DNA from: an archaeon | Lineage (GTDB): Archaea; Nanobdellota; Nanobdellia; Woesearchaeales; GW2011-AR9 | Length of the DNA: 64,000 nt | Assembly (NCBI GenBank): GCA_030704845.1 | Contig: JAUYKZ010000002.1 | Coordinates: forward strand, 15,385-79,384 | Reading direction: 5' to 3' | In this document: piece after piece, positions 47,699 through 64,000 of the stretch | How the letters are laid out: each line of letters opens with the position of its first letter | How positions within the stretch are numbered: the first letter of the stretch is position 1 | The notes under the pieces: model-generated | What the model saw: the letters and a program-made list of their open reading frames with translations, nothing else | Databases searched by the model: none | Told to the model about the DNA's origin: nothing | Program-made: the position numbers and the translations under genes

Positions 47699-47765
47699 GC
47701 CTTAAGAACCCCTCAAAGCACATTTAGGGGTTGTATTTAAAAAGGTTATGACTAAATTTATCAGA

Positions 47766-48506
47766 TTATTGGTTCTTATTCTTTCCAATCATCTTAACTG
47801 TAATTTCAGAAAATGCTTCGTCTTGGGTCATATCGATTTTCTTCTGATTTTCTAAATGTAACAAAGGCAAAAAGGTATAAACTTTATCTTCTCTTCTTGC
47901 TCTCGGTGGAAGTAACCGGGAGAAAGTAACGTCTTCAGTTTGATCTTTATTTAAATAATAAGCTATTTTATGATAAACGTCTCTGATTATTTCCATGATA
48001 TCAATTTTCTTTTCTAAATGTTGAGTAAATTCAACAGGTCTTATCTTTTCAAGAATTCTTTTCTTTGACTGCATGGCTCTTTGAAGAGCGTTAACTAAAT
48101 CGTTAATGGAAACTTTTCTATTTCTGGGTTGGGGATTTCTAGGAATAAGGGTATATTGTTGTTTTTCTTTTCGTTCTCCGTTACCACCAAGAGAATCAAA
48201 GAATTCTTCGTCGATATCTTCAAATTCATCTTGTTGATTAATTAATGCATCTAACTTGGTAATATCTTTATCAATTAAATGAGCACATTTTATTTTAAGA
48301 AGAATAGCTGCGGCAAGAACAATTTTCCCAGAAATTTTAAGATCGTGCTCTTGCATTTTCTTAATAACTTCTATATACTTCTGGGTTAGAAGGGTAATAT
48401 CAACATCCCATGGATCCATTTCTTCGCTTTTAACTAAATCGTAAATAATAGTTTTCCAGCTCAGTTCTTCCTCCTTAAGAAGCATATCAAATAGTTTTTG
48501 TTGCAT
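47766..48506 (-). CDS. scpA: segregation and condensation protein A (kleisin ScpA)-like
   Basis: The N-terminal LFDMLLKEEELSWKTIIYDLVKSEEMDPWDVDITLLTQKYIEVI pattern and the size are typical of archaeal ScpA. Confidence 0.55.
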   Translation of the reverse strand: MQQKLFDMLLKEEELSWKTIIYDLVKSEEMDPWDVDITLLTQKYIEVIKKMQEHDLKISGKIVLAAAILLKIKCAHLIDKDITKLDALINQQDEFEDIDEEFFDSLGGNGERKEKQQYTLIPRNPQPRNRKVSINDLVNALQRAMQSKKRILEKIRPVEFTQHLEKKIDIMEIIRDVYHKIAYYLNKDQTEDVTFSRLLPPRARREDKVYTFLPLLHLENQKKIDMTQDEAFSEITVKMIGKNKNQ

Positions 48507-48556
48507 GGATAAAAGAGAATAAATTCTGATTTATAAATAGTGTGGTTTAAAAATGA

Positions 48557-48705
48557 GTGGGCCCAGCCGGAATTTCGGTTACGAAACTCTCGAACCGGCG
48601 ATCAACGCCTAGCTTATCCTTACAAGGAATGTAAGGGCGCTGTCATTTGCGAGCACGCAAACTCAAAAACATTGTTTTTGCATGTAGCCGCTAGACCATG
48701 GGCCC
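48557..48705 (-). tRNA. tRNA-Val (anticodon TAC) with three putative introns
   Basis: Minus-strand read is GGGCCCA-TG-GTCT-AGCGGCTA[40 nt]TGAC-A-GCGCC-CTTACA[19 nt]A-GGCGT-TGATC-GCCGG-TTCGA[17 nt]TT-CCGGC-TGGGCCC-A. The exons sum to 73 nt and all four stems pair. CCA is not encoded. Putative introns lie at 48645..48684, 48610..48628 and 48572..48588. Confidence 0.8.
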
Positions 48706-48891
48706 AACTATATAGCCAATTTTTCCATTCATTTATTAAGATTTTGGTTATATCTGCTATTATCACTTCCCAAACCTATATAAACAAAAACATTCTTTTC
48801 TTGATAAAAAAGAGGTAAGTATGAAATTTAGTGTAAAAGATACAAAGAAAGAGCTGTACCTTTCTGGTATCTTTGCCACGGAGTTATGTAA

Positions 48892-50370: not shown

Positions 50371-50799
50371 TTAATCTAATCCAGTACTACCAAATCCACC
50401 TTCTCCTCGTTCTGTATTATCATCTAACTCTGTAACTTCGATAACTTCTTTTTGTTCAACAGGTTGAATTAACATTTGAGCAAATTTCTTTCCTAATTCA
50501 ATAGTATGAGTCTCATTAGAAAGATTATGGATCAAAATTTTTATTTCTCCCCGATAACCGGAATCAATTACTCCCGCCATAGTTTTCAATCCTTGGTTAG
50601 TTGCAATCCCGGATTTGTCCCAAATTAAACCTACATAACCGAGAGGAATAGCCATGGCAATTCCCGTAGGAATTAATTTTCTTTCTTGAGGCATGATAGT
50701 TGTTGTTTCATTAGCGTAGAAATCCATCCCGGCATCCCCTAAATTTGCATATTTAGGAATAATTGCATTTTCACATAACTTTTTTATTTTAATTGTCAT
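50371..50799 (-). CDS. dut: dUTP diphosphatase (trimeric dUTPase)
   Basis: 142 aa. AGMDF, GVIDSGYRGEI and the C-terminal RGEGGFGSTG motif. Confidence 0.85.
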   Translation of the reverse strand: MTIKIKKLCENAIIPKYANLGDAGMDFYANETTTIMPQERKLIPTGIAMAIPLGYVGLIWDKSGIATNQGLKTMAGVIDSGYRGEIKILIHNLSNETHTIELGKKFAQMLIQPVEQKEVIEVTELDDNTERGEGGFGSTGLD

Positions 50800-51010: not shown

Positions 51011-51994
51011 ATGATTGACTATATTGTTCCGGAATTGAAACAGAATCCTCACGATTGGGATACGTGGCTTTTTTATTCTGACCTTCTTCAAGGTCAAGGT
51101 AATCCTCTTGGAGAATTAATTGCTTTAGAACATCGTTTATTTTTCTCTTCAGGTCCTCTTGTAGGTTCTGATCATTCTGCTTTAATGGAAGCTAGAGAAA
51201 AAGCTCGGAATGGTGTAAAAGAAGATCTGAAGAAAAAAGGTGTTTCTCATGTTCTTGATTGGTATCACGGCCTTCCTCGTGATGTTGATTTTAATGGTAA
51301 TAATGAACAGAAATCTGAATTAGTTAAATGGAATCCTTTCATTCGGTGTATTGGGACAATTCAAGGATCTTACGGGGATTTCTCTCAACTAGTCCCTGGC
51401 ACCAGAAGACACGTTGACGAATTGTGGAATGATAGGCTGGTTAATCCTGAACTGAGAGATAAATGTTTTTATACTGCGGATGGAGCAATTTATTTCATGC
51501 GCGATGGCAAACCTTATTTTGCTTTTACTAGAGAAAGAAGCAATCCTGCTTTCAAGAATCTTAACGAAGCATGTAAGCAATTACAAGATAATGTTAATTA
51601 TACTGTTTCTGAAGAAGATTTAGAATCCGCTCTTGCTGATCCAGAAACGGAATTATTTGAGTTATCTAAATTAAACGGGAATAACTCCTTCTTTACCGAA
51701 TTATCTACTAAAAATCCTAAACTAGATTCTCTTAGTGAGGATGGAAGAAGGTTAATTCATCGTGTTTATGGCAAAGATAATTTTGATGAAGTCATGTCTA
51801 TGTTAGCTAAACGGTGGTCTATAACAAGAACTTACGTTTTGAATCCTGATTATGTTCGTGAACATGCTTCTGCTGGTGCATTCGGGCGGGCGTCCTGGTT
51901 GGGCAGCAATAGCTTCCTCGCAAGTGATTGCGGTATCAATCTTCATTACCGCCTTCGTGGGGTAGTTCAATCCGAGCCCGCAGGCGAGAGTTGA
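51011..51994 (+). CDS. DGR variable (target) protein
   Basis: 327 aa. The C-terminal FGRASWLGSNSFLASDCGINLHYRLRGV is encoded by the VR. The pattern (..SW..variable..R.RG.) resembles the C-type-lectin/FGE-like VR scaffold. The N-terminal KQNPHDWDTWLFYSDLLQGQGNPLGELIALEHRL resembles the TIGR02996-type segment. No signal peptide or TM helix. Confidence 0.75.
   Translation: MIDYIVPELKQNPHDWDTWLFYSDLLQGQGNPLGELIALEHRLFFSSGPLVGSDHSALMEAREKARNGVKEDLKKKGVSHVLDWYHGLPRDVDFNGNNEQKSELVKWNPFIRCIGTIQGSYGDFSQLVPGTRRHVDELWNDRLVNPELRDKCFYTADGAIYFMRDGKPYFAFTRERSNPAFKNLNEACKQLQDNVNYTVSEEDLESALADPETELFELSKLNGNNSFFTELSTKNPKLDSLSEDGRRLIHRVYGKDNFDEVMSMLAKRWSITRTYVLNPDYVREHASAGAFGRASWLGSNSFLASDCGINLHYRLRGVVQSEPAGES
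51880..51965 (+). repeat. DGR variable repeat (VR)
   Basis: 86 nt aligned by hand to 52272..52357 at a constant offset of 392 nt. There are 14 differences, all at template A positions. Confidence 0.85.
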
Positions 51995-52271: not shown

Positions 52272-52357
52272 ATTCGGGCGGGCGTCCTGGTTGAGCAACA
52301 ATAACTTCAACGCAAATGATTACAATATCAATAATCATAACCGCCTTCGTGGAATAG
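52272..52357 (+). repeat. DGR template repeat (TR)
   Basis: In the target frame it reads FGRASWLSNNNFNANDYNINNHNRLRG, with AAY-rich variable codons. It contains 28 A, of which 14 are substituted in VR. It ends in the shared GC-rich block CCGCCTTCGTGG. Confidence 0.85.
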
Positions 52358-52773
52358 CCCAGCATCTGCTGAGACCTTTTCAATTGGCAGGATATAGAAA
52401 TCTTTGGCAGGAAGTCTGTGATTATAGTAATCTATTGTTAGCATATAAGAAAGCACGAAAGCACAAAACTCAGCGTCCATATGTTCTTGAGTTCGAGGAA
52501 AATCTTACAGAAAACCTAAAATTATTACAAACAGAACTTTTTCTTCATTCTTATCGTCCACGACCATTAGAGACTTTCATTCTTAGAGATCCAAAGACAA
52601 GAAAGATTAGCAGATCAGATTTCAGAGATCGTGTTGTTCATCATGCTTTATGTAATATCATTGAACCTTTCTTTGAAAAAGTTTTCATTTATGATTCTTA
52701 TGCTAACAGAAAAGGCAAGGGAACACTAAAAGCAATAGAAAGATTTGAAGATTTTTATCGTAAGTTATACTAA
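52291..52773 (+). pseudogene. DGR-type reverse transcriptase, N-terminal stump (about 130 aa of RT), truncated at a MITE
   Basis: ..YSNLLLAYKKARKHK..PLETFILRDPKTRKISRSDFRDRVVHHALCNIIEP..IYDSYANRKGKGTLKAIERF.. is about two-thirds identical by hand alignment (75/115) to the N-terminus of the full RT at 61661..63367. It lacks the GNLTSQ and YVDD motifs. There is no ATG in the frame; the track start is TTG at 52291 inside the TR, and another TTG lies at 52384. The stop TAA is supplied by the MITE end. Confidence 0.8.
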
Positions 52774-52949
52774 AGTGCCAAAGCTTTCGAACTTATTTTT
52801 GGCACTTTATATATATAAAATGTGTTAATATACTCAACGCTAAATGAAATTTGGAACTTAATTCATTTAGCGTTTGTATATACCAACGAAAAGTTCACAA
52901 AAATACTTTTCGTTCAGTATATATTCGAAATCTAACGCATTTTAGTATA
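52766..52949 (+). mobile_element. MITE-like element, copy 4, carrying a nested second MITE
   Basis: The left 65 nt and right 28 nt match the 93-bp element (1 mismatch). It is interrupted at an internal TA. Confidence 0.85.
52831..52919 (+). mobile_element. nested 89-bp MITE (second subfamily) inside copy 4
   Basis: TIR is TACTCAACG / CGTTCAGTA. TA is duplicated on both sides (52829..52830 and 52920..52921). Two hairpins (AACGCTAAATGAA..TTCATTTAGCGTT and AACGAAAAGT..ACTTTTCGTT) are separated by TATATA. It has the same 89-nt length and architecture as the host MITE core. Confidence 0.75.
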
Positions 52950-53187
52950 CAATTAATTTAAGGATTATTGTTCTTGATGAACCACATCAAGAGAGTAACT
53001 GCCAAGTAACAACAAAGTCGAAACATTTATATTTCCGCTACAGATTAATAGCGCTTTCCCCAAAATCGCTACAAGCGGATGAGCTTGATATTTGGAGCGT
53101 GTCTGATCCTTTTTTCTGAACATCGTCAGAAATGACCAGTCTTATATGGTTAGTGTAAGGGCTTGGATATATAGTTTGTGTCCACCT

Positions 53188-53214
53188 TGTCAAGTCTGTC
53201 AAGTGTACAAGTCC
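53188..53214 (+). repeat. three tandem 9-mers TGTCAAGTC / TGTCAAGTG / TACAAGTCC
   Basis: Located 57 nt downstream of the integrase stop. Related boxes flank the other side of the same gene: ATCAAGTCC at 54301..54309 and the inverted GACTTGACA at 54344..54352. Confidence 0.5.
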
Positions 53215-53270
53215 ACTCTCTAAGATGATAAGAATTCTATTTCAATCAATATAAAATTATCTGCCGCATT

Positions 53271-54233
53271 TTATCTTTCCATAGAGCTTACTACAACAGC
53301 ATTCTCCTGCTGAACAGGCCCTCCTTTTCTCATCTGACGACTCTCATATAATGCCCTATTCTGCATTAGTTTCTCAGCTTCTTCTACAGCTATTTTACTC
53401 GTGTTTTTGACGTTATCTGGGCTTCCATTACTGATAATAATTGATTGTTTGACTAATTCCTTAAGTTCAGATATTTCGTCTTTAAGAGCCTTCATTTGAG
53501 CCCCTTCCTGCTCTGGAATGGTGTTGAATACCTCATTGACTATATCTCTCTTGGCCACGAGGCTTGTTGTTAGATATCTTTCTGTACTTCTTAGGTTTTT
53601 GTGTCTTCCTGTTATTTGAGCTGCAAATACGCCTCTCCTGTCGCAGATCTTCTGCAGATAATAGTGCCTGAGTGTATGATAGCTTAAAACTGAGAGAGTA
53701 TGGCCATCTTTTGTCATTCCATACTTATGATCTAAACCAGCTTTCTTTCTCGTATCTTCAAGATGTTTTCTGATGGTTTGTTCTGCTAGGTGCTTTTCTT
53801 TATGGCCTGACTTCATTACTCTCATTCTCCAGAAAAGGTAATATTCTCCTCTGAGTTCATTTTGATTGATGTCTTTGCCATGACTTCCATTAAGAACTAT
53901 TTCTGACTTGTATTTCATGATGTGATCTTTTATCCGTCTCATCATTTCATCAGGAATTATGATCTTCTCAAATCGTTCTTTATTCTTTTGTTCAGGTAGA
54001 GTGAGTGTCTTGTCCATGAAGTCTATGTCTTCAATTCTTATTCTGCAGGTTTCAGCGCTTCTTAGGCCAAGCATTGCTGCACAGCAGTAAACATTTTCCC
54101 AAAAGAACACATATTTCTCTTCTTCTATAAATGGAATTGCAGAGAGGAATCTACCGAGTTGTTCTTCTGTGATTGTCTTTTCCTTGGCTTCGTTCCTGTG
54201 CCCAAATTGCATCCTCCCATTGTTGACTTTCAT
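53271..54233 (-). CDS. tyrosine recombinase / integrase (copy 1)
   Basis: 320 aa. Box I LGLRSAETCRIRIEDID, HTLRHYY, and GRHKNLRSTERY with the presumed nucleophile Tyr. Confidence 0.8.
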   Translation of the reverse strand: MKVNNGRMQFGHRNEAKEKTITEEQLGRFLSAIPFIEEEKYVFFWENVYCCAAMLGLRSAETCRIRIEDIDFMDKTLTLPEQKNKERFEKIIIPDEMMRRIKDHIMKYKSEIVLNGSHGKDINQNELRGEYYLFWRMRVMKSGHKEKHLAEQTIRKHLEDTRKKAGLDHKYGMTKDGHTLSVLSYHTLRHYYLQKICDRRGVFAAQITGRHKNLRSTERYLTTSLVAKRDIVNEVFNTIPEQEGAQMKALKDEISELKELVKQSIIISNGSPDNVKNTSKIAVEEAEKLMQNRALYESRQMRKGGPVQQENAVVVSSMER

Positions 54234-54466
54234 GTTGTAGAGTAACCCCTCTCATAAGAATATTCGTGTCCATTGTCATTTATAATTCCCGTGTCCCCAT
54301 ATCAAGTCCAAGAAAACCACAGAGGAAGATAGTGGGAAAAATAGACTTGACAGTATCTGACAAATGCAGAAATTCTGTAGAAAATAGGTATTTTGAGGAC
54401 AAGATTTATATATGCTGATAGTCTCACAAAGTATAGACATTAGCGGAAATTACCGAGGAGAACACA

Positions 54467-54634
54467 ATGCCAGAGAAAATAAAGATGAAAACAAAAAACC
54501 TGATCATAGAGCCAGGAAACATAGAAGTCAAAACGGTTGTAAAATCTGGAAATGGAGCAGTAATCCCATACACCAAAAAATACATCGGAAAAGAAGTTTA
54601 TGTAATCTTAAAAGAGAAATGCAAGACTGAGTAA
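54467..54634 (+). CDS. small AbrB/SpoVT-like (swapped-hairpin) protein, 55 aa
   Basis: Not in the track (under 60 aa). MPEKIKMKTKNLIIEPGNIEVKTVVKSGNGAVIPYTKKYIGKEVYVILKEKCKTE has the G-N-x-x-x-I-P..G..V.V pattern. Preferred over the out-of-frame track ORF 54412..54630. Confidence 0.45.
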   Translation: MPEKIKMKTKNLIIEPGNIEVKTVVKSGNGAVIPYTKKYIGKEVYVILKEKCKTE

Positions 54635-54710
54635 ATGATCATAACGGGATTGAGTATTCTCGCAAAAGTACCCTCAATCCCGATGAGTAAAACCATAGGA
54701 GGTCATACCC

Positions 54711-55028
54711 ATGAAGGGAAATAAACACAAAGATAGATATAAAAATGTCGGTTCAGAACCGAAAAAAGAACAACCAGCAACAGAACAGAGCATTTTGCCA
54801 CATCGAGAAATTGCCTATCAAGTTCTAAAAGATAATGGCAAGCCAATGCATTACAAAGAGATAACTGCAGAAGTTCTCAAAAGAAGCAAATCAGTAGGAA
54901 CTACACCACAGAATAGTATTTTCTCGAGATTAATTACTGACACGCAGAAACGCTTTGTAAAGACTGCAAAAGGTACATTCGGATTAACTGAATGGAATTC
55001 TAAGGAGGCTGAGAAAAATGCCAAATGA
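54711..55028 (+). CDS. HARE-HTH domain protein
   Basis: LPHREIAYQVLKDNGKPMHYKEITAEVLKR...TPQNSIFSRLITD..RFVKTAKGTFGLTEW matches the HARE-HTH (RpoE-delta N-terminal-like) pattern. Confidence 0.6.
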   Translation: MKGNKHKDRYKNVGSEPKKEQPATEQSILPHREIAYQVLKDNGKPMHYKEITAEVLKRSKSVGTTPQNSIFSRLITDTQKRFVKTAKGTFGLTEWNSKEAEKNAK

Positions 55029-55362
55029 AACAGGATTAATCTCGGCTGTTAATCAGAGAGAAAGCAACAAGTACGGAGTCAAGATCAATGATGAATGGTA
55101 CGGTGGATATGGTGTTTGTCCTGTAAAGAAAGGCGATACTGCTTCTGTTGAATACAAGCTAAATGGTAAGTACAGAAATATCATAAAGATAGAAAGAGAA
55201 AAAGAAGCAGAAGCCCAACCAAACAACAAAGATAATGTTGTGGAAGATATTCATCTCCAAGTTTGTCTTAAAGCAGCTGCACAAATCTTAACAGGAACAA
55301 AAACGCCAGCATCAGAAGTAGCACAATACTCAAGAGAACTTCTAAAAGAGATCTGGGGATGA
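55018..55362 (+). CDS. hypothetical protein
   Basis: 114 aa, overlapping the upstream gene by 11 nt (operon-like). No motif recognised. Confidence 0.45.
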   Translation: MPNETGLISAVNQRESNKYGVKINDEWYGGYGVCPVKKGDTASVEYKLNGKYRNIIKIEREKEAEAQPNNKDNVVEDIHLQVCLKAAAQILTGTKTPASEVAQYSRELLKEIWG

Positions 55363-55367
55363 TTTAG

Positions 55368-56249
55368 ATGGCTCAAGACGCAAAAGCAAAATCAATCACA
55401 GAGGCACAATTTAATATGTTCATGGAAGCAGTAAGAGAAATCGAGAAAAGATATGACGATGATTATGTGAAATTCTGGGAGAATACTTACTATTGTGCAA
55501 GCGAACTCGGATTAAGAAGCGTCGAAGTATGCAAGATAAAAGTTGAACACATTGACTTCTTTGAAAAGACTTTGCTTTTACCAGAACAGAAAAATAAAGA
55601 AAAATACGAGAAGATTATAGTCCCTGATTTTATGGTTGACAGATTCAAAGATCATATTTTGAATTACAAATCACAGATTGCACTTGCTGATAATTATCTT
55701 TTCTGGAGACAAAGATATGGAAGAACTTCAAGATGTGGAAGAACCCCCACATCTGGAAAATATGTTTTAGGGAGAGAACAACACATGAGTCCTGGAACAA
55801 TAAGAACCCATACAATTAGAGCAAGAAAGAAAGCAGGACTCGACCATAAATATGGCAAAAGCAATTCAGGCCATCAATTATCTGTATTGAGTTTTCACAC
55901 ATTAAGACACTTTTATTTACAAAAAATTTGTGATAAGAGAGGTGTTTTTGCTGCACAAATCTGTGGAAGACACAGAAATCTTAGAAGCACTGAGAGATAC
56001 ATTAAATCAAGCTTACAAGCAAAAAGAGATATCGTGAATGCAGTCTTTAACACAACTGAAGAGAAGCATTCTGTGGAAATTGATCAATTAAAGAATCAAA
56101 TTACTGAGCTGACAAATTTAGTAAAAGTTATCGCTACACCACAATCAGCTGCATGTACTCCTGCAACACACAAGTTTGCAGAAGAAGAAGCGATCATGAT
56201 GCTTCAAAACAATTTATTCAATCAAAAACGAAGAGTGGAGAGAGATTAA
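55368..56249 (+). CDS. tyrosine recombinase / integrase (copy 2, paralog of 53271..54233)
   Basis: 293 aa. LGLRSVEVCKIKVEHID, HTLRHFY and GRHRNLRSTERY. Long collinear identity with copy 1 (for example KKAGLDHKYG....GH.LSVLS.HTLRH.YLQKICD.RGVFAAQI.GRH.NLRSTERY). Confidence 0.8.
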   Translation: MAQDAKAKSITEAQFNMFMEAVREIEKRYDDDYVKFWENTYYCASELGLRSVEVCKIKVEHIDFFEKTLLLPEQKNKEKYEKIIVPDFMVDRFKDHILNYKSQIALADNYLFWRQRYGRTSRCGRTPTSGKYVLGREQHMSPGTIRTHTIRARKKAGLDHKYGKSNSGHQLSVLSFHTLRHFYLQKICDKRGVFAAQICGRHRNLRSTERYIKSSLQAKRDIVNAVFNTTEEKHSVEIDQLKNQITELTNLVKVIATPQSAACTPATHKFAEEEAIMMLQNNLFNQKRRVERD

Positions 56250-56250
56250 A

Positions 56251-56460
56251 ATGAGAGAATGGAACTGTCCAAAATGCAAGAAAACAGTAACTTGTCATCC
56301 TGGAACAAGTAGACGAGACAATAAGACAAAAATATGTTCTGAATGTTGTACTGACGAGGCAATATTTGATTTTCAAGTAGCTCTTTCAAAACAGAAAAAG
56401 AAAATCTTTCCAGAGAATTTTATTGCTCTGGAGAAAGAATGGCTCAAGGAGGTAAACTAA
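56251..56460 (+). CDS. small zinc-ribbon protein
   Basis: 69 aa with CPKC ... CSECC cysteine pairs. Confidence 0.45.
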   Translation: MREWNCPKCKKTVTCHPGTSRRDNKTKICSECCTDEAIFDFQVALSKQKKKIFPENFIALEKEWLKEVN

Positions 56461-56461
56461 G

Positions 56462-56839
56462 ATGACATTAGATGTAAGAATAGGTAAAAAAATAGGAGAT
56501 TCTTCTGTTGAACAATGTCCTGATGCTAAAGAAAACATTTGTGATCCACTGCATACAAATTGGCCAACAGAATCGTACAGAAGTGGAAATAACTTTTCAT
56601 TCTGGAAGTTTTTTACAAAAAACAAGGACTTGAAAGCAATATATTTGGAGATGAGAAAACATCCAAATACAAATGATTTGGATTTAGCACTAATCAAACC
56701 ATTTCTAAAACGTATAAACAAACTAAAAGATGCTGATTTTGTCAATGAAGTAGATAAGGATAGATTGAAGTGGCTAAAATATTGGAGTAACAAAGCAGTT
56801 GAATTATATGGAAACGAAGCAGCTATTTTATTTAGTTAA
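56462..56839 (+). CDS. hypothetical protein
   Basis: 125 aa, tightly packed after the upstream gene. No motif recognised. Confidence 0.4.
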   Translation: MTLDVRIGKKIGDSSVEQCPDAKENICDPLHTNWPTESYRSGNNFSFWKFFTKNKDLKAIYLEMRKHPNTNDLDLALIKPFLKRINKLKDADFVNEVDKDRLKWLKYWSNKAVELYGNEAAILFS

Positions 56840-56851
56840 GGAGAGTGGACA

Positions 56852-56989
56852 ATGGTTGATAAATATGAAAAAAAGCATATCAAAGCCATCAAGAACTGTG
56901 TAACAGATGACGATTTGGCTGTTGTAATTAACAGAATCTATGATGATGGTTTTCAGGATGGAGCAAACGAAGGTTCAAAATCCAAATAA
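56852..56989 (+). CDS. small ORF (45 aa)
   Basis: Not in the track. AAGGAGAG box upstream of the ATG at 56852. Product is MVDKYEKKHIKAIKNCVTDDDLAVVINRIYDDGFQDGANEGSKSK. Confidence 0.3.
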   Translation: MVDKYEKKHIKAIKNCVTDDDLAVVINRIYDDGFQDGANEGSKSK

Positions 56990-57023
56990 TTTCTTTATTC
57001 TTTCCCAAAGTGAGATCTTGATC

Positions 57024-57245
57024 TTATGTTTGCTTGTGATTTTCTGATATGTTTTTTTGGTCATTTAAAGCACTCTCCTTACGTCTTTTAATCTCATTGT
57101 CTAGGAATGTACTAAAGGCCATCAAATCCTTTGTATTATGGTTTATTTTGTATTTGAAACCTACCCTGTGCATGTCAATAAGCTCTTTCAGAGTTACTAT
57201 TATCCCCCCTTGTGACGATAATTTCATTGTATCTCCTTTATGCAA
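57024..57245 (-). CDS. hypothetical protein
   Basis: 73-aa ORF. No motif recognised. Confidence 0.3.
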   Translation of the reverse strand: MHKGDTMKLSSQGGIIVTLKELIDMHRVGFKYKINHNTKDLMAFSTFLDNEIKRRKESALNDQKNISENHKQT

Positions 57246-57596
57246 CTCATAACAGCTTCAACAACTGTAACAGATACTGCATTTCCACATTGAGTATATC
57301 TTTGAGTTTCTGCAACTCCTTCGGTCCAATTATCTGGAAACCCTTGTAATCTTTCTGTCTCAAGTGGTGTGAGTCTGCGTATATATCTCTGCAATAAACG
57401 GAATATGATTTCCTCCTGTTTTGCTTGTGGGTATTGTCGGAGCAATTCCCGATATCGAATAGATTCTTTTGCTTTGATAGTCGCCGTCATAGATGAGTTC
57501 CCACCCATTACTGCCATGATTATTTAGATCGTCTTCTGCTATTTCTTTGAGTCTCTTGTTTACAACTTTGTATTTCCAATTTGCCAATTTAATCAC
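57224..57596 (-). pseudogene. remnant of a DNA cytosine-5 methyltransferase (C-terminal part only, frameshifted) behind a DUF4177-like N-terminus
   Basis: Frame A (57360..57596) has WKYKVV..LNNHGSNGWELI, then QSKRIYSISGIAPTIPTSKTGGN (TRD-end-like). Frame B (57224..57517) has IRRLTPLETERLQGFPDNW....QCGNAVSVTVV (motifs IX-X). The frames switch near 57385..57395. Catalytic motifs I-VI (FxGxG, PCQ, ENV) are absent. Confidence 0.6.
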
Positions 57597-57825
57597 CTGG
57601 AGGTTCGATGTCTATGATTTTTCCTGTAGTCCTGCTTTCGAGTGCAATATCAGAGTCTGTGATGCTAAGTTCGATGAATATCTTTTTTCTTTCAGCAACT
57701 CCTTGATTGTCTACAAGCCATTTCAAGACAACCCCTTTCTTGTCTAAGCTGTGAATTATTAGAGAGTTCTTGACGTAATCTGTAAGATTCTCAATTTCTG
57801 TCATTTTGTCTTGAATTGTTGCCAT
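57589..57825 (-). CDS. hypothetical protein
   Basis: 78 aa, between the structural genes and the MTase remnant. No motif recognised. Confidence 0.35.
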   Translation of the reverse strand: MATIQDKMTEIENLTDYVKNSLIIHSLDKKGVVLKWLVDNQGVAERKKIFIELSITDSDIALESRTTGKIIDIEPPGD

Positions 57826-57828
57826 TGT

Positions 57829-58584
57829 TTATTCCTCGTATCCCTCAAATCTTGCGAATACTTCTTTACTTCCTCCGCCGAGATTTGTTCTCCTAAGAAT
57901 TATTTTGTGAGTACTGTTTCCTGTAATCTTTTCAGATAAGTCAAACTTGTCAGAGCTTCCATTAACGTAAAGTGTGGCGATTAAGATTAATGTGACTCCA
58001 TCTCCTGAGGGATTGTCGTATAAGGTTACTTTGCATGCTTTTGTTGCCTCTTCACTTCCTGCAAGAAGTCTCCCTATGACAAGTTTCTTTCCATTTGTTA
58101 TTGTGTATACTGAATCTGTATTGCCTGAGACAGTTCCGAAAGCAGTAATTATCACAGGTGTTGTTGAAGCTGGGGGTGTGGCAGGAGGAGTTGCGACAAG
58201 CAGTCTTCCAGAACTATCTACAGAAGCTTTAAGCAATGGATTATTTGAATCTCTAATTATGAAAGAATCGATTAAAGTAAGATCTGATTTTACAAGTAAT
58301 TTGCCGTCAACATCAACTTTTGCTTTGATGTTAGAAATAGGATCTTTGATAGTAAATGAATCAATTTGTACTATATCATTTTTTATTAGCAGTTTTCCAT
58401 CTGCATCTACTATTGCCTGACTGTTTGTTGTTGCATCCTTTATTGAAATTGAATCAATACTGACGTTTCCTTGAATATTTGCGTTAATGCTTCCATTAGG
58501 TTCGACTTGAATACTGCTCACTATCTGCTTTAATTCAGTCACTGTTCCTTTCAATTGTTCAAGTATTTCTGTGTCGATTCCCAT
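57829..58584 (-). CDS. repeat-containing structural protein (fiber/decoration-like)
   Basis: Three tandem repeats of about 29 aa (IDSISIKDATTNSQAIVDADGKLLIKND / IDSFTIKDPISNIKAKVDVDGKLLVKSD / IDSFIIRDSNNPLLKASVDSSGRLLVATP). They are followed by a PATPPASTTP linker and a beta-rich C-terminal domain. Its start overlaps the stop of the capsid gene. Confidence 0.45.
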   Translation of the reverse strand: MGIDTEILEQLKGTVTELKQIVSSIQVEPNGSINANIQGNVSIDSISIKDATTNSQAIVDADGKLLIKNDIVQIDSFTIKDPISNIKAKVDVDGKLLVKSDLTLIDSFIIRDSNNPLLKASVDSSGRLLVATPPATPPASTTPVIITAFGTVSGNTDSVYTITNGKKLVIGRLLAGSEEATKACKVTLYDNPSGDGVTLILIATLYVNGSSDKFDLSEKITGNSTHKIILRRTNLGGGSKEVFARFEGYEE

Positions 58585-59321
58585 TAATCTATCACCGCCA
58601 CAGCATTTCCATTGAGAACTATTGGAGCAATTCTTTCTCTAAGTAAAAATCCTTTTTTACTTTGCCAAGGATCTGAATAATCAGATATCTCAAGAGGAAC
58701 TCTTTCAATTAGAAGGCCTGCATTTATCGAATCAAGAATTATAACAACATTCTTAGGAACAGAAGTATCGATGATAACTTCAATCGCATAAGTGATTAAT
58801 TTATCTTTTAGTTCATCTCGTTGTCTTAATGATTCTGCAATCTTTGGATTAAGTAGAATTACATCAGGATGATATTTGTTGTCTTCAATAAACTTTATTG
58901 CCGAAATAAAGTTGTCAAGTATTGGTTTCTCTCTAACATGATCTTTTGTTTCGGTAGTTATCTTTTTTCCTGCTCCAGCAATCAATGTTTCAATAACTAA
59001 TTTATTTTCAATCTCTGCAAGAATAAAACTTTCATTGATAGATTTTTGAAGCATCTCATTGATTCCATTATCTTCAAAGCATTCTTCAGAAAAAAGAATT
59101 GTGGCCTTAATAGTCAAAGGAAAGACAACAACAGATTCGACATCAAAAAGAGATATTGGAGCTGTACCCAAATTGGGTACGATTGCACCGTTCACATTCT
59201 TGATTTTACTTATCTTTATTGCAGAGCCATCAGTCTGCTGTTGCAGTCTTAATACTCTTGGACCTATACGAAACTTTCCTGCTTCAATTAGCACTTGAGA
59301 CTTGACAGTAGATAGGTCCAT
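58584..59321 (-). CDS. HK97-fold major capsid protein paralog B
   Basis: 245 aa, collinear with 59360..60166. The C-terminus ILDSINAGLLIERVPLEISDYSDPWQSKKGFLLRERIAPIVLNGNAVAVI follows the HK97/encapsulin C-terminal pattern. Confidence 0.55.
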   Translation of the reverse strand: MDLSTVKSQVLIEAGKFRIGPRVLRLQQQTDGSAIKISKIKNVNGAIVPNLGTAPISLFDVESVVVFPLTIKATILFSEECFEDNGINEMLQKSINESFILAEIENKLVIETLIAGAGKKITTETKDHVREKPILDNFISAIKFIEDNKYHPDVILLNPKIAESLRQRDELKDKLITYAIEVIIDTSVPKNVVIILDSINAGLLIERVPLEISDYSDPWQSKKGFLLRERIAPIVLNGNAVAVID

Positions 59322-59359
59322 GTAGCATTACCTCTAAAAAAATAATTTGATGACCTATT

Positions 59360-60166
59360 TTACAAGATCATCTTTGAGACTGCGTTGTCATCAAGTACTG
59401 CAGGTGCAACTCTCTCTGTTATAGTAACTCCAGCTGCAAGATCTCTTAATGGATCTGTGAAGTTCTCTATGGACAAAGGTCGTCTTTCAACCAGCACACA
59501 TGCTCTACTGTCTAAAGCAAGTATTGTTCCTGGCTCTACTGCTGTGGTTTCAACTACTTGAAGACCAGCAACATTTCCCACGATGCCTGTCTCGTCAAGT
59601 CTATCAAAAGCTTTGTATCCTTTGCCGATAAGGTCTTTCTCGAGCTTTGCCAAGTCATCAGGGTGTGCAACAAGCCATGCAGCTTTGTAGCTGTGTCTGT
59701 TTACTGCATTTCTCAAAGTTACAACGTCTTCTTGGACAAATTGTCCTGCAGTCTTTGGCGAGACTGTATTCGTTGTCTTCATCAATACTCGGAAGATTTC
59801 TTCATCTTCTTTTCTTGCAATGTCTTCTGCAGCCATGTCAGCTTTTAATCTGACAACATCAAATGCTGAATCTTCAATTGCTTCTTTCGGTATAGCAAAT
59901 GCTTTTCCGATCTTATATGGTGTCACGACAATTTCATTGAATGTGCTGACATCCATAGGGATTGCTCCCAGTTCAGGAATTACATAAGCTTGTCCTGCTC
60001 CCATCTTAGGGATTTTCAGTGCAGATCCTTCACTCAAAGTGATCAGTTTCACAATTTTTCTTCCTACTCTTTCTCTGCCTGCAACCTTAAACACGTTGGA
60101 GTCTATGACTTCCTTGATGAGAGGTGCAGCGTCTTGACTTGAAAATAGTTCTTGCATTGTTTTCAT
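59360..60166 (-). CDS. HK97-fold major capsid protein paralog A
   Basis: 268 aa. ARKEDEEIFRVL (the conserved acidic ..ED..if helix), AAWLVAHPDDLAKLEKD (..vl.P.dw..l) and the C-terminal ALDSRACVLVERRPLSIENFTDPLRDLAAGVTITERVAPAVLDDNAV match the HK97 capsid/encapsulin layout. It lies downstream of the protease, scaffold and decoration genes. Confidence 0.6.
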   Translation of the reverse strand: MKTMQELFSSQDAAPLIKEVIDSNVFKVAGRERVGRKIVKLITLSEGSALKIPKMGAGQAYVIPELGAIPMDVSTFNEIVVTPYKIGKAFAIPKEAIEDSAFDVVRLKADMAAEDIARKEDEEIFRVLMKTTNTVSPKTAGQFVQEDVVTLRNAVNRHSYKAAWLVAHPDDLAKLEKDLIGKGYKAFDRLDETGIVGNVAGLQVVETTAVEPGTILALDSRACVLVERRPLSIENFTDPLRDLAAGVTITERVAPAVLDDNAVSKMIL

Positions 60167-60180
60167 TTTGCCTCTCCTCC

Positions 60181-60555
60181 TTATTTGACTATTTTTACAG
60201 GAATCTTTCTTGTTACTGGGCTACCACCAGTCGAGTTGTCTATCTTCTCGTATGCTTTGGCCACTGCTACTCCTGTGTTTTTTGCTTGCAGTGTTTTGTT
60301 GTCTTTGACTTCAAGTTCATCCCCAACATTCAGGGTTGCTGAAGCTGCAACTGATACATCCACATAGAATGTTCCGATGCATCCTACTGATGCAGGGTTT
60401 TCTTGTGGTGTGTCTTTTAAGCAGACTCCAAGTATGTCCGCTTGTGCAGATGCTGGTTGAACTGTTAGTCCAACAAGCTGTCCTTTTGTAAGGTCTGCAT
60501 TTGCAACGAGCATGCTTGGGTTCTTTCCGTCGTCAATCATGATATCGTATGTCAT
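60181..60555 (-). CDS. head decoration-like protein (DUF2190-like)
   Basis: 124 aa. ..ADLTKGQLVGL....ILGVCLKD......GTFYVDV......LNVGDELEV.. follows the DUF2190 pattern. Positioned between the scaffold and capsid genes. Confidence 0.45.
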   Translation of the reverse strand: MTYDIMIDDGKNPSMLVANADLTKGQLVGLTVQPASAQADILGVCLKDTPQENPASVGCIGTFYVDVSVAASATLNVGDELEVKDNKTLQAKNTGVAVAKAYEKIDNSTGGSPVTRKIPVKIVK

Positions 60556-60568
60556 TTTGATTCACCTC

Positions 60569-61042
60569 TTAGTTCTCCTTTATTCCAAGTGCAGAAGCGA
60601 TTTCTTTTTTCTTGTCTGTTGCTTGGTTTGAATTGTTGATCAAGGATTTTCTGTCGCCTATGCTTTTGTGCAGTTCAAGTATTTTCTTTGTCTGTTTTGC
60701 ATAGGAATCAAATCCTCCTTTTTCGTCAAGTTCTCTCATTTCGTTGAGTCTTTGTTCTTTGTTTGTCTCAAGGACACCGAGCTTTTCTTCAGCATCTATA
60801 ATTTCTCTCAATGCCATGTCTCGTGAATCTTGCTTGATTCTCTTCAATTCTTTCGTGACTGTCTCAAATTCTTTCATCAATTTCTCGTGCTTTGCAGTCA
60901 TGTCCGAGATAAGTTTGTCTTTTGAAGATACTTCCTGATTTAGCTTTGCAATTTCTTGTTCTTTTGCAGCAAGCTCTTCAGCGGCTTTCTTCAATAGTAT
61001 TTTTGCCTGTTCAATTTCTTTGACTTCCGCCATTTTAATCAT
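60569..61042 (-). CDS. scaffolding protein (coiled coil)
   Basis: 157 aa, strongly E/K-rich with heptad character. Positioned between the protease and capsid genes. Overlaps the protease gene by 8 nt. Confidence 0.5.
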   Translation of the reverse strand: MIKMAEVKEIEQAKILLKKAAEELAAKEQEIAKLNQEVSSKDKLISDMTAKHEKLMKEFETVTKELKRIKQDSRDMALREIIDAEEKLGVLETNKEQRLNEMRELDEKGGFDSYAKQTKKILELHKSIGDRKSLINNSNQATDKKKEIASALGIKEN

Positions 61043-61631
61043 TGCCTCCGTTCTCTATAGGATTGATTTTTGCATCTTTACATGCAGGATCATCTACAAG
61101 ACTCAATTCTTTAAATTCGAGATTGCGAGCTACTTGCACTCCATTCTCCTCAACATTATCTATCAACACACCAACACTCACAGAATCAATCAGATTATCT
61201 AGAAGTTTTTGTACTATTTCTGCGTCAGTTACTATTGCTTCAAACTCAACTCTCTTGGTATCTTGCATCCATGTTGACTTGAGTACTTTTCCAACAATAT
61301 CTCTCGTGCTTGTTGAATGATCTATCCTTAGTGGTTTCCCTTCAAGTCCACTGTATGCTTTCTCAAGTTCATCTGCAGGATAGAATATGCCGTTCCAAGT
61401 TCCTTCACTTATTGCAACTCCTGATATTCTAAGAGAAGTACCTTCCTTGAGAACTTGATGGATTTTTACATTTGTAAGCTGTACATGTTCAAGTTGTCGT
61501 GATAAGGTTTTGATTTTAGGAGCTACGCTGTTATTTACAAGAAAGCTCTCTATCAATTCTTTTGAATCTTCTTTTTGATTCTCAACAGAGTTGATGAACT
61601 CGTAAATTTCCTTGATAAGTAATTCAACCAT
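61035..61631 (-). CDS. HK97-family prohead protease (S78/U35-like)
   Basis: 198 aa. ISGVAISEGTWNGIFYPADEL..GKPLRIDHSTSTRDIVGKV (His region) and LIDSVSVGVLID (Ser in an SxG-type motif) match the prohead protease layout. Confidence 0.6.
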   Translation of the reverse strand: MVELLIKEIYEFINSVENQKEDSKELIESFLVNNSVAPKIKTLSRQLEHVQLTNVKIHQVLKEGTSLRISGVAISEGTWNGIFYPADELEKAYSGLEGKPLRIDHSTSTRDIVGKVLKSTWMQDTKRVEFEAIVTDAEIVQKLLDNLIDSVSVGVLIDNVEENGVQVARNLEFKELSLVDDPACKDAKINPIENGGND

Positions 61632-61660
61632 AACATCAGAAATCTGTTTTTTTCTTAATA

Positions 61661-63367
61661 TTATTTTAGTAGAGAAACCTTTGAAGGCTGATTATTTTTA
61701 TGATTACTCTTACGAAGATTTTGTCTAAACTCTCTCCATGAGACAAATCTTTTCTTATCCTGTTCAGGTAGAACACATATTTTTACATGAGTATTAAAGA
61801 AGTCCAGAAACTCATTCTTCGTAAATCGCAATTCGGCACCTTTAGCTACAAGTTGTTGAAATTTTACTCTACATTCTTGTCTTTGACTTTTGTTATAATA
61901 ACATTTTCTAAAACAATTTGTTCTTTTATACCAGTCAATAAAATACATAATACTTTTCTTTTGGTGTTTTCCTCTCAAATTAGCAAGAACACAATTTATT
62001 TCATTATAAGTTACGGTATCATCTTTGATCCTTTCTTTTATATCTTTTAATTTGTCATCAAGAGACTTTATATTTGCAAGAATAATTTTAGTTTTATTTT
62101 CAGGTATTATTGATTTGAGAGTTAGCTGATGATTTTCGACAAGACATGCAACATGATCCCATACTGTTCCTTCTTTAATCCCTCTTGTTTCTGCAATCTT
62201 TTTCGCAGTCATGCCCTTTTTGATTAATTGTAAAGTTTTTTGTTGACTGAATTCAATTTCACTTTCATCAACTTTATGATTAAAATTTTCATGTTTCTTT
62301 ACAGAAGTTATAATTACTTCTGGTCTAGCTGGAAAAGCAATATTAAATTTAGCAGTCATTCTTCTTCGGTATTTGTATGTATTGGCGTGAGAAGCATATG
62401 CTAACCATCCCTCAAATTTTTCAATAACTTTTTCTCTATCAATTTTGCCATCTAAATATTCGTATTTCATTTGTTCCATTTTTTTCTCGAATTTTCTCAT
62501 ATTCTTCTGCACGAGAAGTTTGTGATTGTAGAATACTCTAAATCCGAGAAATCCTATTCCTTTTTCCAGTTTTAGAACTTGTGATTTATCGGGATGCAAT
62601 TTTAGATCCAACTTCACACGTAGAAATTCATCTATTTTGGATTTATATTCATCGAGAACAGTGCTTGATTGATGCAGAATGGCAAAGTCATCCACATATC
62701 TTATGTAATATTGTGCTCTTAATTTATGCTTCACAAATTGATCGAGTTCATTCAGATACACATTTGCAAAGAATTGCGATGTTAAATTTCCAAGAGGCAT
62801 TCCTTTGTTTTCACATTCGCCTTTATGATTTGCAAGTATTTTCTTAATTAGCCACATTAGTCTTTGATCTTTTATTCTGTTGCTCAATAATTCGATGAGT
62901 ATTTGATGATTTACTGTGTCAAAGTAGCTTTTGATATCTGCTTTTAGAACATAGCATCGGATAGTGTTATTTTTTGAAACCTTTCTTTTAAATTCGTCAA
63001 ATCTTTTGACAGCGTTTAAGGTACCTTTGGTGAGTCTATTCGCATATGAATCATATATGAACCTTTTATCGAATACGGGTTCTATAATGTTGCAAATTGC
63101 ATGGTGAACAACTCGATCTCTGAATGCAGATTTGCTTATCTTCCTTGTTTTTGGATCTCTAAGAATGAATGTCTTAAGGGGTTGGGGTTCATAGGTCTGC
63201 ATTATTAGTTCATATCTTAGTTGTAGAAGATTTTCCTTTAGTTTTTCTTCAAATTCGATAACATAGCGTTTTAGGGTTTTGCCTCGTCTTGCTCTGTTAA
63301 ACGCAGTCTCTAGGTTTTCATATGAACAAAGTTCTTCATAAACATTGATTAATTCTTTTTCAACCAT
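61661..63367 (-). CDS. DGR-type reverse transcriptase, full length, with about 230-aa C-terminal extension containing an HTH
   Basis: FILRDPKTRKISKSAFRDRVVHHAI, DSYANRLTKGT, GMPLGNLTSQFFANVYL (DGR-diagnostic motif 4), IRYVDDFAIL (YxDD) and GWLAYASHANT (thumb). The extension then contains LIKKGMTAKKIAETRGIKEGTVWDHV (HTH) and a Cys/basic-rich tail. It lies 29 nt upstream of, and is co-oriented with, the protease gene. Confidence 0.85.
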   Translation of the reverse strand: MVEKELINVYEELCSYENLETAFNRARRGKTLKRYVIEFEEKLKENLLQLRYELIMQTYEPQPLKTFILRDPKTRKISKSAFRDRVVHHAICNIIEPVFDKRFIYDSYANRLTKGTLNAVKRFDEFKRKVSKNNTIRCYVLKADIKSYFDTVNHQILIELLSNRIKDQRLMWLIKKILANHKGECENKGMPLGNLTSQFFANVYLNELDQFVKHKLRAQYYIRYVDDFAILHQSSTVLDEYKSKIDEFLRVKLDLKLHPDKSQVLKLEKGIGFLGFRVFYNHKLLVQKNMRKFEKKMEQMKYEYLDGKIDREKVIEKFEGWLAYASHANTYKYRRRMTAKFNIAFPARPEVIITSVKKHENFNHKVDESEIEFSQQKTLQLIKKGMTAKKIAETRGIKEGTVWDHVACLVENHQLTLKSIIPENKTKIILANIKSLDDKLKDIKERIKDDTVTYNEINCVLANLRGKHQKKSIMYFIDWYKRTNCFRKCYYNKSQRQECRVKFQQLVAKGAELRFTKNEFLDFFNTHVKICVLPEQDKKRFVSWREFRQNLRKSNHKNNQPSKVSLLK

Positions 63368-63368
63368 A

Positions 63369-63478
63369 GTAATATACGGTATATTACAGTTGATTTATTA
63401 ACATTGTTTCGATCTTTGAAAACATATGTAATATACTGTATAATACTGTGTTTATTAGTTATATACAGTATTATACAA
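63369..63478. promoter_or_regulatory. three operator-like palindromic boxes in the divergent RT / AbrB-like promoter region
   Basis: GTAATATACGGTATATTAC (63369..), GTAATATACTGTATAATAC (63429..) and GTTATATACAGTATTATAC (63458..). Each contains ATAC-N-GTAT. The spacing is about 60 and about 29 nt. Confidence 0.5.
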
Positions 63479-63481
63479 TCT

Positions 63482-63679
63482 ATGACAGATGAAAAGCGCC
63501 AAATTATAGAACGGTCTGTAAAACAGTTAAATACTTATGGCAACGGAATCGGAGTTTTAGTGACGAGGGAAGCCAAAGCAATAGGACTTAAAAGTGGAAG
63601 TAAAGTCCAAGTAAGTGCAATAAAAACAAAAGATAAAGAATTTATCATTATTGAAAAATTCCCGATTACTGAAGAATAA
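63482..63679 (+). CDS. AbrB/MazE-like (SpoVT-AbrB) DNA-binding protein
   Basis: Track ORF is 63404..63679. The ATG at 63482 (MTDEKRQ) avoids the operator region. GNGIGVLVTREAKAIGLKSGSKVQVS has the AbrB-like looped-hinge pattern. Confidence 0.5.
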   Translation: MTDEKRQIIERSVKQLNTYGNGIGVLVTREAKAIGLKSGSKVQVSAIKTKDKEFIIIEKFPITEE

Positions 63680-63883
63680 AACTCAGTTCATACACGATCT
63701 CTTTGCCTTATAAACTACTTGTGTTTTCTAATTAAATAGTGGACTCTCAAATAAACCAATGATAGATGAAACTACTGGCAAGTGATGAATAAATCGAAAC
63801 ATTTAAATATTAGTTGTACTACCTAATAGTAAATACATATTGATTGCATGTTAAAAATATACAAAACATATGGTGACAACATA

Positions 63884-64000
63884 ATGACTGAATTCACATT
63901 AACAAAACAAATCAGCAAACAAGGTACACAAAATATAATTATAATACCTGCATTCCTTAGAGAAAAGCTAAAACCAAAAATGTTAGTCGAGATAAAAATC
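63884..64000 (+). CDS. AbrB-like small protein, partial (runs off the window)
   Basis: MTEFTLTKQISKQGTQNIIIIPAFLREKLKPKMLVEIKI is open to the window end. A CGAAACATTTAAATA BRE/TATA-like box lies about 85 nt upstream. Confidence 0.35.
   Translation, partial: MTEFTLTKQISKQGTQNIIIIPAFLREKLKPKMLVEIKI

Follow-up and report, generated by a model that had tools for sequence, protein, structure and literature searches.

What is a reverse transcriptase doing directly beside the capsid genes of an archaeal virus? The question is posed by a 64-kb stretch of DNA, called the window throughout, from contig JAUYKZ010000002.1 of a Woesearchaeales archaeon (GW2011-AR9; assembly GCA_030704845.1). Coordinates are window positions unless one of the related contigs or loci compared with it, designated by L-numbers, is named. 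On the minus strand of the window a reverse transcriptase (RT) gene is followed by genes for a prohead protease, a scaffold, a decoration-like protein, the capsid proteins A and B and a repeat protein, with a 29-nucleotide (nt) gap between RT and protease and an 8-nt overlap between protease and scaffold. An earlier interpretation made from the letters alone (the sequence-only reading) had listed these open reading frames (ORFs) in just this order and spacing, and each was recovered at the position it had given. It saw the RT as holding the slot of portal and terminase and offered three explanations: a decayed provirus, a capsid-encoding satellite, or a portal-less capsid compartment linked to the RT and formally analogous to gag-pro-pol-int retroelements. 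Our comparison leads to the first of these. The locus is very probably a decaying provirus of an ordinary head-tailed HK97-type virus of Woesearchaeota/DPANN, carrying a diversity-generating retroelement (DGR) cassette as cargo in the spacer between portal and protease.

Intact relatives and the portal-protease spacer

Relatives of the head module were found by an alignment-based capsid scan of viral contigs; a single-sequence RT scan of viral contigs gave no match. Capsid A has 23 close homologs, and all of those with readable context sit in head-tail modules. The closest relative, L026, is a complete tailed-virus contig from IMG/VR that is 93% identical in nt to the window over 58249-61673. 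Its genes run in the order terminase, a 121-amino-acid (aa) gene, portal (identified by Pfam portal families), a 44-nt spacer, a 198-aa protease, scaffold, cement, capsids A and B, a 283-aa gene, a 78-aa gene (orf78), about ten small genes and the tape measure. Homology between window and L026 extends from 61673 to 57493 and starts 3 nt past the stop codon of the L026 portal gene.

The content of the portal-protease slot changes from one relative to the next. It is empty in L026 (4417-4462), holds a 357-aa gene in L005 (7060-8133) and L027, DsrE-SHOCT-HTH in L061-L070 (L061 12045-12996) and L028, nine genes including a methyltransferase in L002 (1714-8127), a mini-DGR in L009 (3878-8162) and a full 8-kb DGR cassette in L032 (6553-14654). 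On L032/L030, a 33-kb viral contig, terminase and portal are followed by the template repeat (TR) of the DGR, a target gene, a 662-aa protein, a second target, an ATPase and two AbrB genes, and then by the RT, the protease and the remaining genes up to the tape measure. Similarly, L009, a contig from a Woesearchaeota metagenome-assembled genome (MAG), reads terminase, a 124-aa gene, portal, TR, target (-), AbrB (-), RT (+), three small ORFs and protease, and continues through scaffold, cement, capsids and tail genes to the tape measure. The same RT-side junction is found in L003, L004 and L008, of which the first two run on into a tail module and the third stops within the head module, while in L005 and L002 the head genes are preceded by terminase and/or portal and followed by a tape measure. 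Portal and large terminase are thus present in the intact L026, L032, L009 and L005, and a tail module with tape measure in all intact relatives. The spacer between portal and protease serves this virus group as a hot spot for cargo. The RT does not hold the portal/terminase slot; it is the end of a cassette that was inserted beside the portal, as L026, L032/L030 and L009 indicate.

The same contigs bear on the idea that the cassette is simply chromosomal and was joined to a head fragment by illegitimate recombination, in which case the adjacency would be accidental and no portal would ever have been attached. The ATPase encoded by the window's cassette is indeed closer to cellular copies (82-87%: L036, L014, L037) than to viral ones (76.5%: L030, L003), and most cassettes do not lie beside viral genes. 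Against an accident speak two junctions: the homology to L026 breaks off no more than 3 nt from the stop codon of the portal gene, and in L071, a close sister of the window's element, the TR abuts a portal 3' end (94% to the L026 portal) with the geometry seen in L009 and L032. Together they make the cassette a clean insertion in the portal-protease spacer, and we give next to no credence to a chance joining.

A second alternative sees in the locus a portal-less HK97 shell that, with RT, protease and integrase, would form one domesticated unit resembling gag-pro-pol-int. The genes for RT, protease, scaffold and capsids stand close together on one strand, the head ORFs are intact, and the RT-beside-protease synteny that the sequence-only reading had suggested looking for does recur, in the same orientation, in L003, L004, L008, L009 and L030. 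However, a full tail module follows wherever a contig extends past the head genes (L003, L004, L009, L030), and portal and terminase lie beyond the cassette wherever sequence reaches. Head modules without RT are found in L026, L027, L028, L005, L002 and L061-L070, the closest relatives among them. Conversely, the RT occurs with its cassette in more than 30 loci, none of which has capsid genes where it extends several kb past the RT, and the sister L071 keeps the RT cassette with the capsid genes deleted. RT without capsid and capsid without RT mean that RT and head genes assort independently instead of being inherited as one unit. This contradicts the gag-pro-pol-int analogy and leaves the RT-linked compartment of the sequence-only reading without support; with the RT having a demonstrable DGR job as well, the idea is barely credible.

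The DGR cassette and its activity

The RT had been assigned to the DGR type, and its domains as well as the (P)LGNLTSQ stretch in its translation, an instance of the [I/V/L]GxxxSQ signature, bear this out. It forms the end of a cassette of ~8 kb that runs past the right edge of the window. From the RT, the cassette order continues with one or more divergent AbrB-like genes, a P-loop ATPase of ~525 aa, two to six targets of ~300 aa with variable regions (VRs) flanking a ~650-aa protein, and the TR, which can lie up to ~7 kb from the RT (e.g. L012 4583-13139; L071 1148-9144). The layout is the same on L012, a 269-kb Woesearchaeota chromosome contig, with VRs at the ends of three ~300-aa genes and the TR at the far end. 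Genome and metagenome collections hold the cassette in more than 30 further Woesearchaeota/Nanoarchaeota loci (L014-L060), and all of these that extend several kb past the RT are devoid of capsid genes. The ~650-aa protein family gave 118 strong matches, mostly labelled Nanoarchaeota or Woesearchaeota, and is common on long contigs of cellular origin. The cassette ORFs that were scanned gave no Pfam match to Avd/HRDC accessory genes.

The TR/VR pair of the 61661-63367 RT falls outside the window and was tested in L071, whose RT is 98% identical. There the TR lies at 9064-9144 and the targets carry the two VRs at their 3' ends. VR2 differs from the TR by 15 mismatches, 13 of them at TR adenines; the mismatches of VR1, which is 3 nt longer, are likewise mostly at A positions. 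When L071 is compared with the window and with L001, a Logan contig that extends it, 15 of the 102 differences over 5454 nt cluster within 46 nt of VR1. As this cluster and the adenine mismatches of VR2 show, the cassette has mutagenised its targets since window and L071 diverged, and the DGR was active recently. TR/VR sets also exist in L012, L009 and L032, where the VRs end ~300-aa paralogs, and the C-terminus of the ~300-aa protein in L001 resembles a DGR variable region. On these comparisons the RT has a sufficient and demonstrable DGR role independent of the capsid, and no functional link to the capsid was shown.

VR1 itself (window-equivalent 66406-66489; L071 5893-5976) is one codon longer than the sole TR found in L071, and yet it is hypervariable between genomes that are 98% identical. 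Either a second TR exists or homing tolerates the difference in length.

Two further genes of the cassette were considered as disguised viral genes, the ATPase as a cryptic terminase and the 650-662-aa protein as a cryptic portal. Both candidates were rejected: neither shows similarity to the portals and terminases of the relatives, and neither has a Pfam or NCBIfam match. The sole PDB hint for the ATPase is to a McrB-like GTPase at E 0.2.

The region between the RT and its divergent neighbour contains the palindrome core TATACAGTATTATAC, and in L008 a 46-nt inverted repeat of this sequence (5228-5273, 7626-7671) encloses the RT gene from end to end. Assemblies are frequently interrupted at the target paralogs, and many cassette contigs are ~2.8 kb long. 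Some contigs of the virus or the cassette are found in MAGs labelled Cloacimonetes, Methanosarcinales or Doudnabacteria (L003/L004 from GCA_021734835.1 and GCA_021736975.1; L015, L025, L017), labels that probably reflect mis-binning.

Deletions and probable decay of the provirus

On the tail side, intact relatives carry a DUF4177 gene right after orf78. In the window the first ~30 codons of this gene are fused, at 57493, to an adjoining fragment of a cytosine methylase gene, and DUF4177 matches residues 7-35 of the resulting ORF (57224-57596). The tail module has been deleted in the window, and the junction at 57493 lies inside a gene. Beyond it comes a lysogeny block that is colinear with the corresponding block of L007 (77% nt identical), where it follows tail genes. 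L007, whose capsid A is 91% identical, keeps its tail genes up to the tape-measure position and then joins the same integrase block, a different and smaller tail deletion.

The portal side is seen in L071 and L072, which are 98.1% identical to the window-equivalent interval 61048-66501 (5454 nt) and continue rightward through a target (VR1), a 656-aa protein, a target (VR2) and the TR into a portal remnant on the head-gene strand. In L071 this remnant consists of the last ~160 codons of a portal gene, with 94% identity to that of L026, joined directly to codons 10-375 of the MCM-like replication protein known from the intact virus. The deletion removes the helicase core, a primase-like gene, a Dam methylase, ParB, a 197-aa gene and the terminase, together with three-quarters of the portal; accordingly, L071 and L073 contain no terminase and only the C-terminal portal remnant. 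The portal-remnant/MCM fusion is found on nine contigs from several samples, and in L079 an archaeal histone gene comes next. On the opposite side, L071 and L072 lack window positions 53397-61047, a 7.65-kb deletion that took both integrases and all capsid genes. What it left in L071 (405-1118) is an in-frame fusion of protease residues 1-195 with the final 46 residues of the 320-aa integrase (53271-53396 joined to 61048-61631). Since L071 has lost them, the head genes are dispensable in this sister genome.

The differing deletions of the window, L007 and L071 are independent events in one provirus lineage and point to decay. We infer from the 98%-identical L071 that the window's genome has also lost its portal and terminase. 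The decayed provirus, one of the options of the sequence-only reading, is thus supported by the gene-cutting tail junction, the deletions of the sisters and the portal remnant. That reading was right in finding no portal, terminase or tail homologs, which were detected nowhere in the 64-kb window, but it judged a region that is cut by the window edge. It had also supposed that an ordinary DGR-carrying provirus would show such genes to the right: portal and terminase do stand there in relatives, whereas this lineage retains only the C-terminal portal remnant (L071) and its tail genes are deleted.

A milder version of events would have the provirus complete except for its tails, with portal and terminase intact to the right of the cassette, so that it could package its own DNA like a satellite and borrow the tails of a helper. 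Complete relatives do carry terminase and portal beyond the cassette, the head genes of the window are all intact, and complete viruses of the L026 type, possible helpers, occur in related samples. What makes this version unlikely is that the 98%-identical L071/L073 have a portal remnant and no terminase, the remnant form being the one on nine contigs. In addition, the tail junction cuts a gene and adjoins a pseudogene, so that it looks accidental and unlike an evolved satellite architecture, and one and the same provirus has lost different parts in L007 and in L071. Portal look-ups returned no match from the window's own sample, and a search of the L026-type portal cluster listed no Logan source. 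Among the cluster members are nevertheless two sequences of Logan origin, one a 679-aa portal from a contig of 96,872 nt and the other the 110-aa remnant, neither of which can be assigned to the window's sample or excluded from it. The capsid-encoding satellite of the sequence-only reading finds no support either, as the junction cuts genes and the sister copies differ.

Some observations weigh against the decaying provirus as we describe it. AlphaFold2 models of capsids A and B, built from shallow alignments, reached mean predicted local distance difference test (pLDDT) values of 43.5 and 36.1, too low to confirm an HK97 fold. Every ORF from protease to orf78 is intact and shares 82-98% identity with its counterpart in a complete virus, and a residual function, for example particle formation, is possible. 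RT and protease share a strand across a 29-nt gap that could allow co-transcription by read-through. Finally, window sequence past 66501 was not recovered, and L071 differs from the window by the 7.65-kb indel on the other side.

With the decaying provirus as the preferred reading, the history of the locus may be told as follows. Intact relatives have replication genes, ParB and terminase first, then the portal, a slot for variable cargo, and from the protease onward scaffold, cement, capsids A and B, connector and tail genes and tape measure. A lysogeny (integrase) block beyond the tail genes was observed in L007 alone, itself a relative with part of its genes deleted. In this lineage a DGR of ~8 kb would have inserted between portal and protease, placing the RT on the head-gene strand beside the protease, and, divergent from it, two AbrB-like regulators, the McrB-like AAA+ ATPase and the ~300-aa targets flanking the ~650-aa protein, with the TR beside the portal. 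There the RT serves its own cassette: it copies the RNA of the TR into the VRs and makes adenine-specific errors on the way. Internal deletions would have followed: the whole tail module, whose loss is visible in the window, and most of the portal with all of the terminase, ParB and primase genes, whose loss is visible in the 98%-identical relative and presumed here. The head ORFs are still intact, probably because the deletions are recent; the sister variant has lost its head genes too.

One could go further and picture the intact head genes being expressed, perhaps by read-through from the RT, and forming portal-less or tail-less shells kept by the host, an early stage of domestication from virus to compartment that is coupled to an active DGR; or, more modestly, the virus group could shuttle a cellular-type DGR cassette with multiple targets between Woesearchaeota chromosomes by means of its cargo slot. 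We see a very slim chance for such scenarios.

The head module and other features of the locus

The features are collected in Table 1. The sequence-only reading had called the capsids HK97-type and the protease a prohead protease. Profile and homology matches and the protease motifs support both calls, with protease profiles that match weakly and structure models of too low confidence for the fold. The putative HK97 fold is thus assigned from profile and sequence homology. Capsid A also matches a solved capsid protein (PDB 6wkk) at 1e-5, PF25209 and annotated phage capsid genes. Capsid B adjoins capsid A in every relative. Two neighbouring HK97 capsid paralogs, 26% identical, are kept throughout the virus group (window 58584-60166); by analogy with T4 gp23/gp24, they may represent a hexon/penton split.

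The protease retains the invariant His (IDHS) and Ser (SVSVG) in alignment with its relatives. A truncation of its 5' end by the RT junction was considered and rejected, since the protein's first ~35 aa are conserved and a length of 198 aa, the short form, is native to the intact viruses L026 and L027. Across the virus group, the proteases of alignment A5 fall into a short class of 198-206 aa and a long class of 300-434 aa, and in the long ones a domain of 100-240 aa is inserted after the conserved N-terminus of ~35 aa (L003 8163-9065, L008 7825-9129, L029 6720-7940). The 251-aa protein that follows capsid B is 82% identical to its 283-aa homolog in L026 and found no family match in profile scans.

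The lysogeny block is made up of a 55-aa ORF, a HARE-HTH gene (54711-55028), a 114-aa ORF, a 293-aa integrase (55368-56249) and ORFs of 69 and 125 aa. The 55-aa ORF has no Pfam family at E <= 0.01 and is AbrB-like by eye only. The two tyrosine integrase paralogs (53271-54233 and 55368-56249) are 50% identical and lie in opposite orientation within one 3.5-kb block.

Table 1. Annotated features of the element, from its left terminus to the window edge (window positions).
Feature	Position	Strand	Evidence
Left terminus of integrated element, non-coding	53004..53270	.	L071/L072 homology starts exactly at 53004
Tyrosine integrase, 320 aa	53271..54233	-	PF00589 5.5e-11; 3' end retained in L071
Lysogeny/regulatory block	54467..56839	+	Pfam: HARE-HTH, integrase family
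C5 cytosine methylase pseudogene, C-terminal ~70 residues only	57224..57492	-	PF00145 profile positions 255-323 of 324
5' stump of DUF4177 gene, tail-side deletion junction	57493..57588	-	L026, L027, L007, L003 homology stops at 57493
orf78, 78-aa protein in head-completion or connector position	57589..57825	-	94% identical to L026; same position in all relatives
251-aa repeat-containing protein, slot after capsid B	57829-58584	-	218-296-aa homologs in same slot in all relatives
Capsid paralog B	58584-59321	-	BLASTP 7e-22 vs capsid A; hhalign 98.8%
HK97-type major capsid protein A	59360-60166	-	PF05065 (Phage_capsid) 8e-23; PHROG major head proteins; 98.5% identical to L026
Cement/decoration-like protein, 124 aa	60181-60555	-	PF09956 (Phage_cement_2) at 1e-6
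Coiled-coil protein in scaffold position	60569-61042	-	Position and weak coiled-coil matches; 92% identical to L026
Prohead protease, short form, 198 aa	61035-61631	-	Invariant His105 and Ser150/152 motifs in alignment A5
Remnant of portal-protease spacer and DGR cassette junction	61632..61673	-	L026 homology ends at 61673 = L026 4420
DGR reverse transcriptase, 568 aa, cassette-proximal gene	61661-63367	-	RVT_1 and HTH_40; phrog_1423 at 9e-115; 98% identical to L071 RT
Divergent promoter/operator region, nested palindromes	63362..63491	.	Inverted repeats I1-I3
First small AbrB-like gene of divergent operon	63404..63679	+	88% identical to L003/L030 homologs; AbrB-like by motif, by eye
B recognition element (BRE)/TATA-like motif CGAAACATTTAWAT, 'right end' of the sequence-only reading	63774..63808	+	Also upstream of ATPase operon in cellular L012 and in L071
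Second small AbrB-like gene, cut by window end	63848..64000	+	In L001 followed by 523-aa AAA+ ATPase and ~300-aa target

Element ends and flanks

The element reaches from ~53004 to past 64000, so the window edge cuts the locus. Leftward of 53004, L071 and L072 diverge into an unrelated gene. Of the ends that had been proposed, 52950 and 63811, the left one was about right, whereas the right one is a promoter-like motif inside the cassette. It had been paired with the left end through the direct repeat D3 (52998-53032 / 63774-63808), which we rejected as a pair of att sites: the repeat is a BRE/TATA-like promoter motif, and the copy at 63774-63808 stands inside a conserved cassette block that is colinear among relatives. 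Sequence beyond 64000 was inspected, as had been advised, and the element continues there, in L001 and then in relatives of the L071 type. L001, found by exact look-up with the RT, is 100% identical to the window over 54998-64000 and adds 2.5 kb, to window-equivalent 66501, encoding an AbrB-like protein, the 523-aa ATPase and the first ~300-aa DGR target. For the window's own right flank past 66501, the exact look-up returned only L001, and scans of genome and metagenome contigs gave no 100% match longer than 1.5 kb.

A second DGR lies to the left of the element, with a target ORF at 51011-51994, its VR at 51880-51965 and a TR at 52272-52357; all 14 TR/VR mismatches fall at TR adenines. Of its RT only the first ~123 residues remain, up to ~52770; they share 63% identity with the full-length RT located 10 kb away, and beyond them three hairpins lie within 52774-52950. 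Integration of the provirus into this truncated RT gene (52400-52773) was considered and is unsupported: RT similarity stops at ~52767, 237 nt short of 53004, the two RT copies are inverted and 63% identical in protein, and in L079 no 3' part of an RT is present at the far end. The host flank at 45800-50799 is archaeal, with a LonB-type protease, an AMP/thymidine-phosphorylase-like gene with a CDC48_N-like N-terminus and a dUTPase. No tRNA gene was found in the whole 64-kb window.

Comparison with known systems

The locus belongs to two known kinds at once, a DGR and a defective archaeal head-tail provirus; it is a remnant and not a functional virus. For nanoarchaea, at least four DGRs as well as partial ones have been described, and the archaeal virus ANMV-1 likewise carries one (Paul et al. 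2015, PMC4372165). As in those systems (PMC4372165), we find an [ILV]GxxxSQ RT, TR and VRs differing at TR adenines (in L071), VRs at the 3' ends of orphan targets, and several, partly fragmentary DGRs in one small archaeal genome. In contrast to known archaeal DGRs, the virus-borne DGR here targets no tail-fibre gene; it is a multi-gene cassette with AbrB-like genes, an AAA+ ATPase, two to six target paralogs, the ~650-aa protein and a TR separated from the RT by as much as ~7 kb, in which no Avd/HRDC accessory gene was recognised; and the same cassette is common to cellular chromosomes and viruses.

With defective archaeal proviruses of HK97-type Caudoviricetes the locus shares its integrase-flanked position beside host genes, the order protease, scaffold, decoration, capsid, its internal deletions and pseudogenes, and close intact relatives present as complete viral contigs. 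An HK97 capsid is present, and portal, large terminase and a tail module with tape measure are missing. The locus differs from such proviruses in the large DGR in the portal-protease slot, the two capsid paralogs and the two paralogous integrases.

Capsid-forming satellites of the type known as capsid-forming phage-inducible chromosomal islands (cf-PICIs; work of Alqurainy et al. in 2023) reportedly share a conserved, evolved architecture that lacks tails, and encode a portal and a small terminase of their own. Like them, the locus is a mobile element with head genes and without tail genes. Here, however, the tails were lost by a gene-cutting deletion, sister copies differ, and portal and terminase have apparently been deleted; in place of a conserved tail-less architecture with clean gene boundaries, both DUF4177 and the methylase are cut. 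Encapsulins resemble the locus in having an HK97-type shell protein and, as far as the visible locus goes, no portal. The score of capsid A against Linocin_M18 (E 5.5e-4, 19.7 bits) is below the cut-off of 24.3, and no encapsulin-type cargo with a targeting peptide was identified at the locus. Unlike encapsulins, the shell genes here are accompanied by protease, scaffold and cement genes in a module 93% nt identical to that of a complete tailed virus, and the shell family has not evolved apart from tailed viruses, as the contexts of the 23 close capsid homologs attest.

Implications

The apparent placement of an RT in the portal slot arises from the combination of a window edge, a cargo insertion and the decay of a provirus, and it illustrates that synteny-based claims of novelty need the flanks of a locus and its nearest intact relatives. 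Beyond this, the comparison documents a group of head-tailed viruses of Woesearchaeota, so far represented by metagenomic contigs only, whose portal-protease junction can hold a complete 8-kb DGR. That DPANN chromosomes and viruses have in common a DGR cassette which encodes an AAA+ ATPase, and whose targets are not tail genes, bears on how DGRs spread in these lineages.

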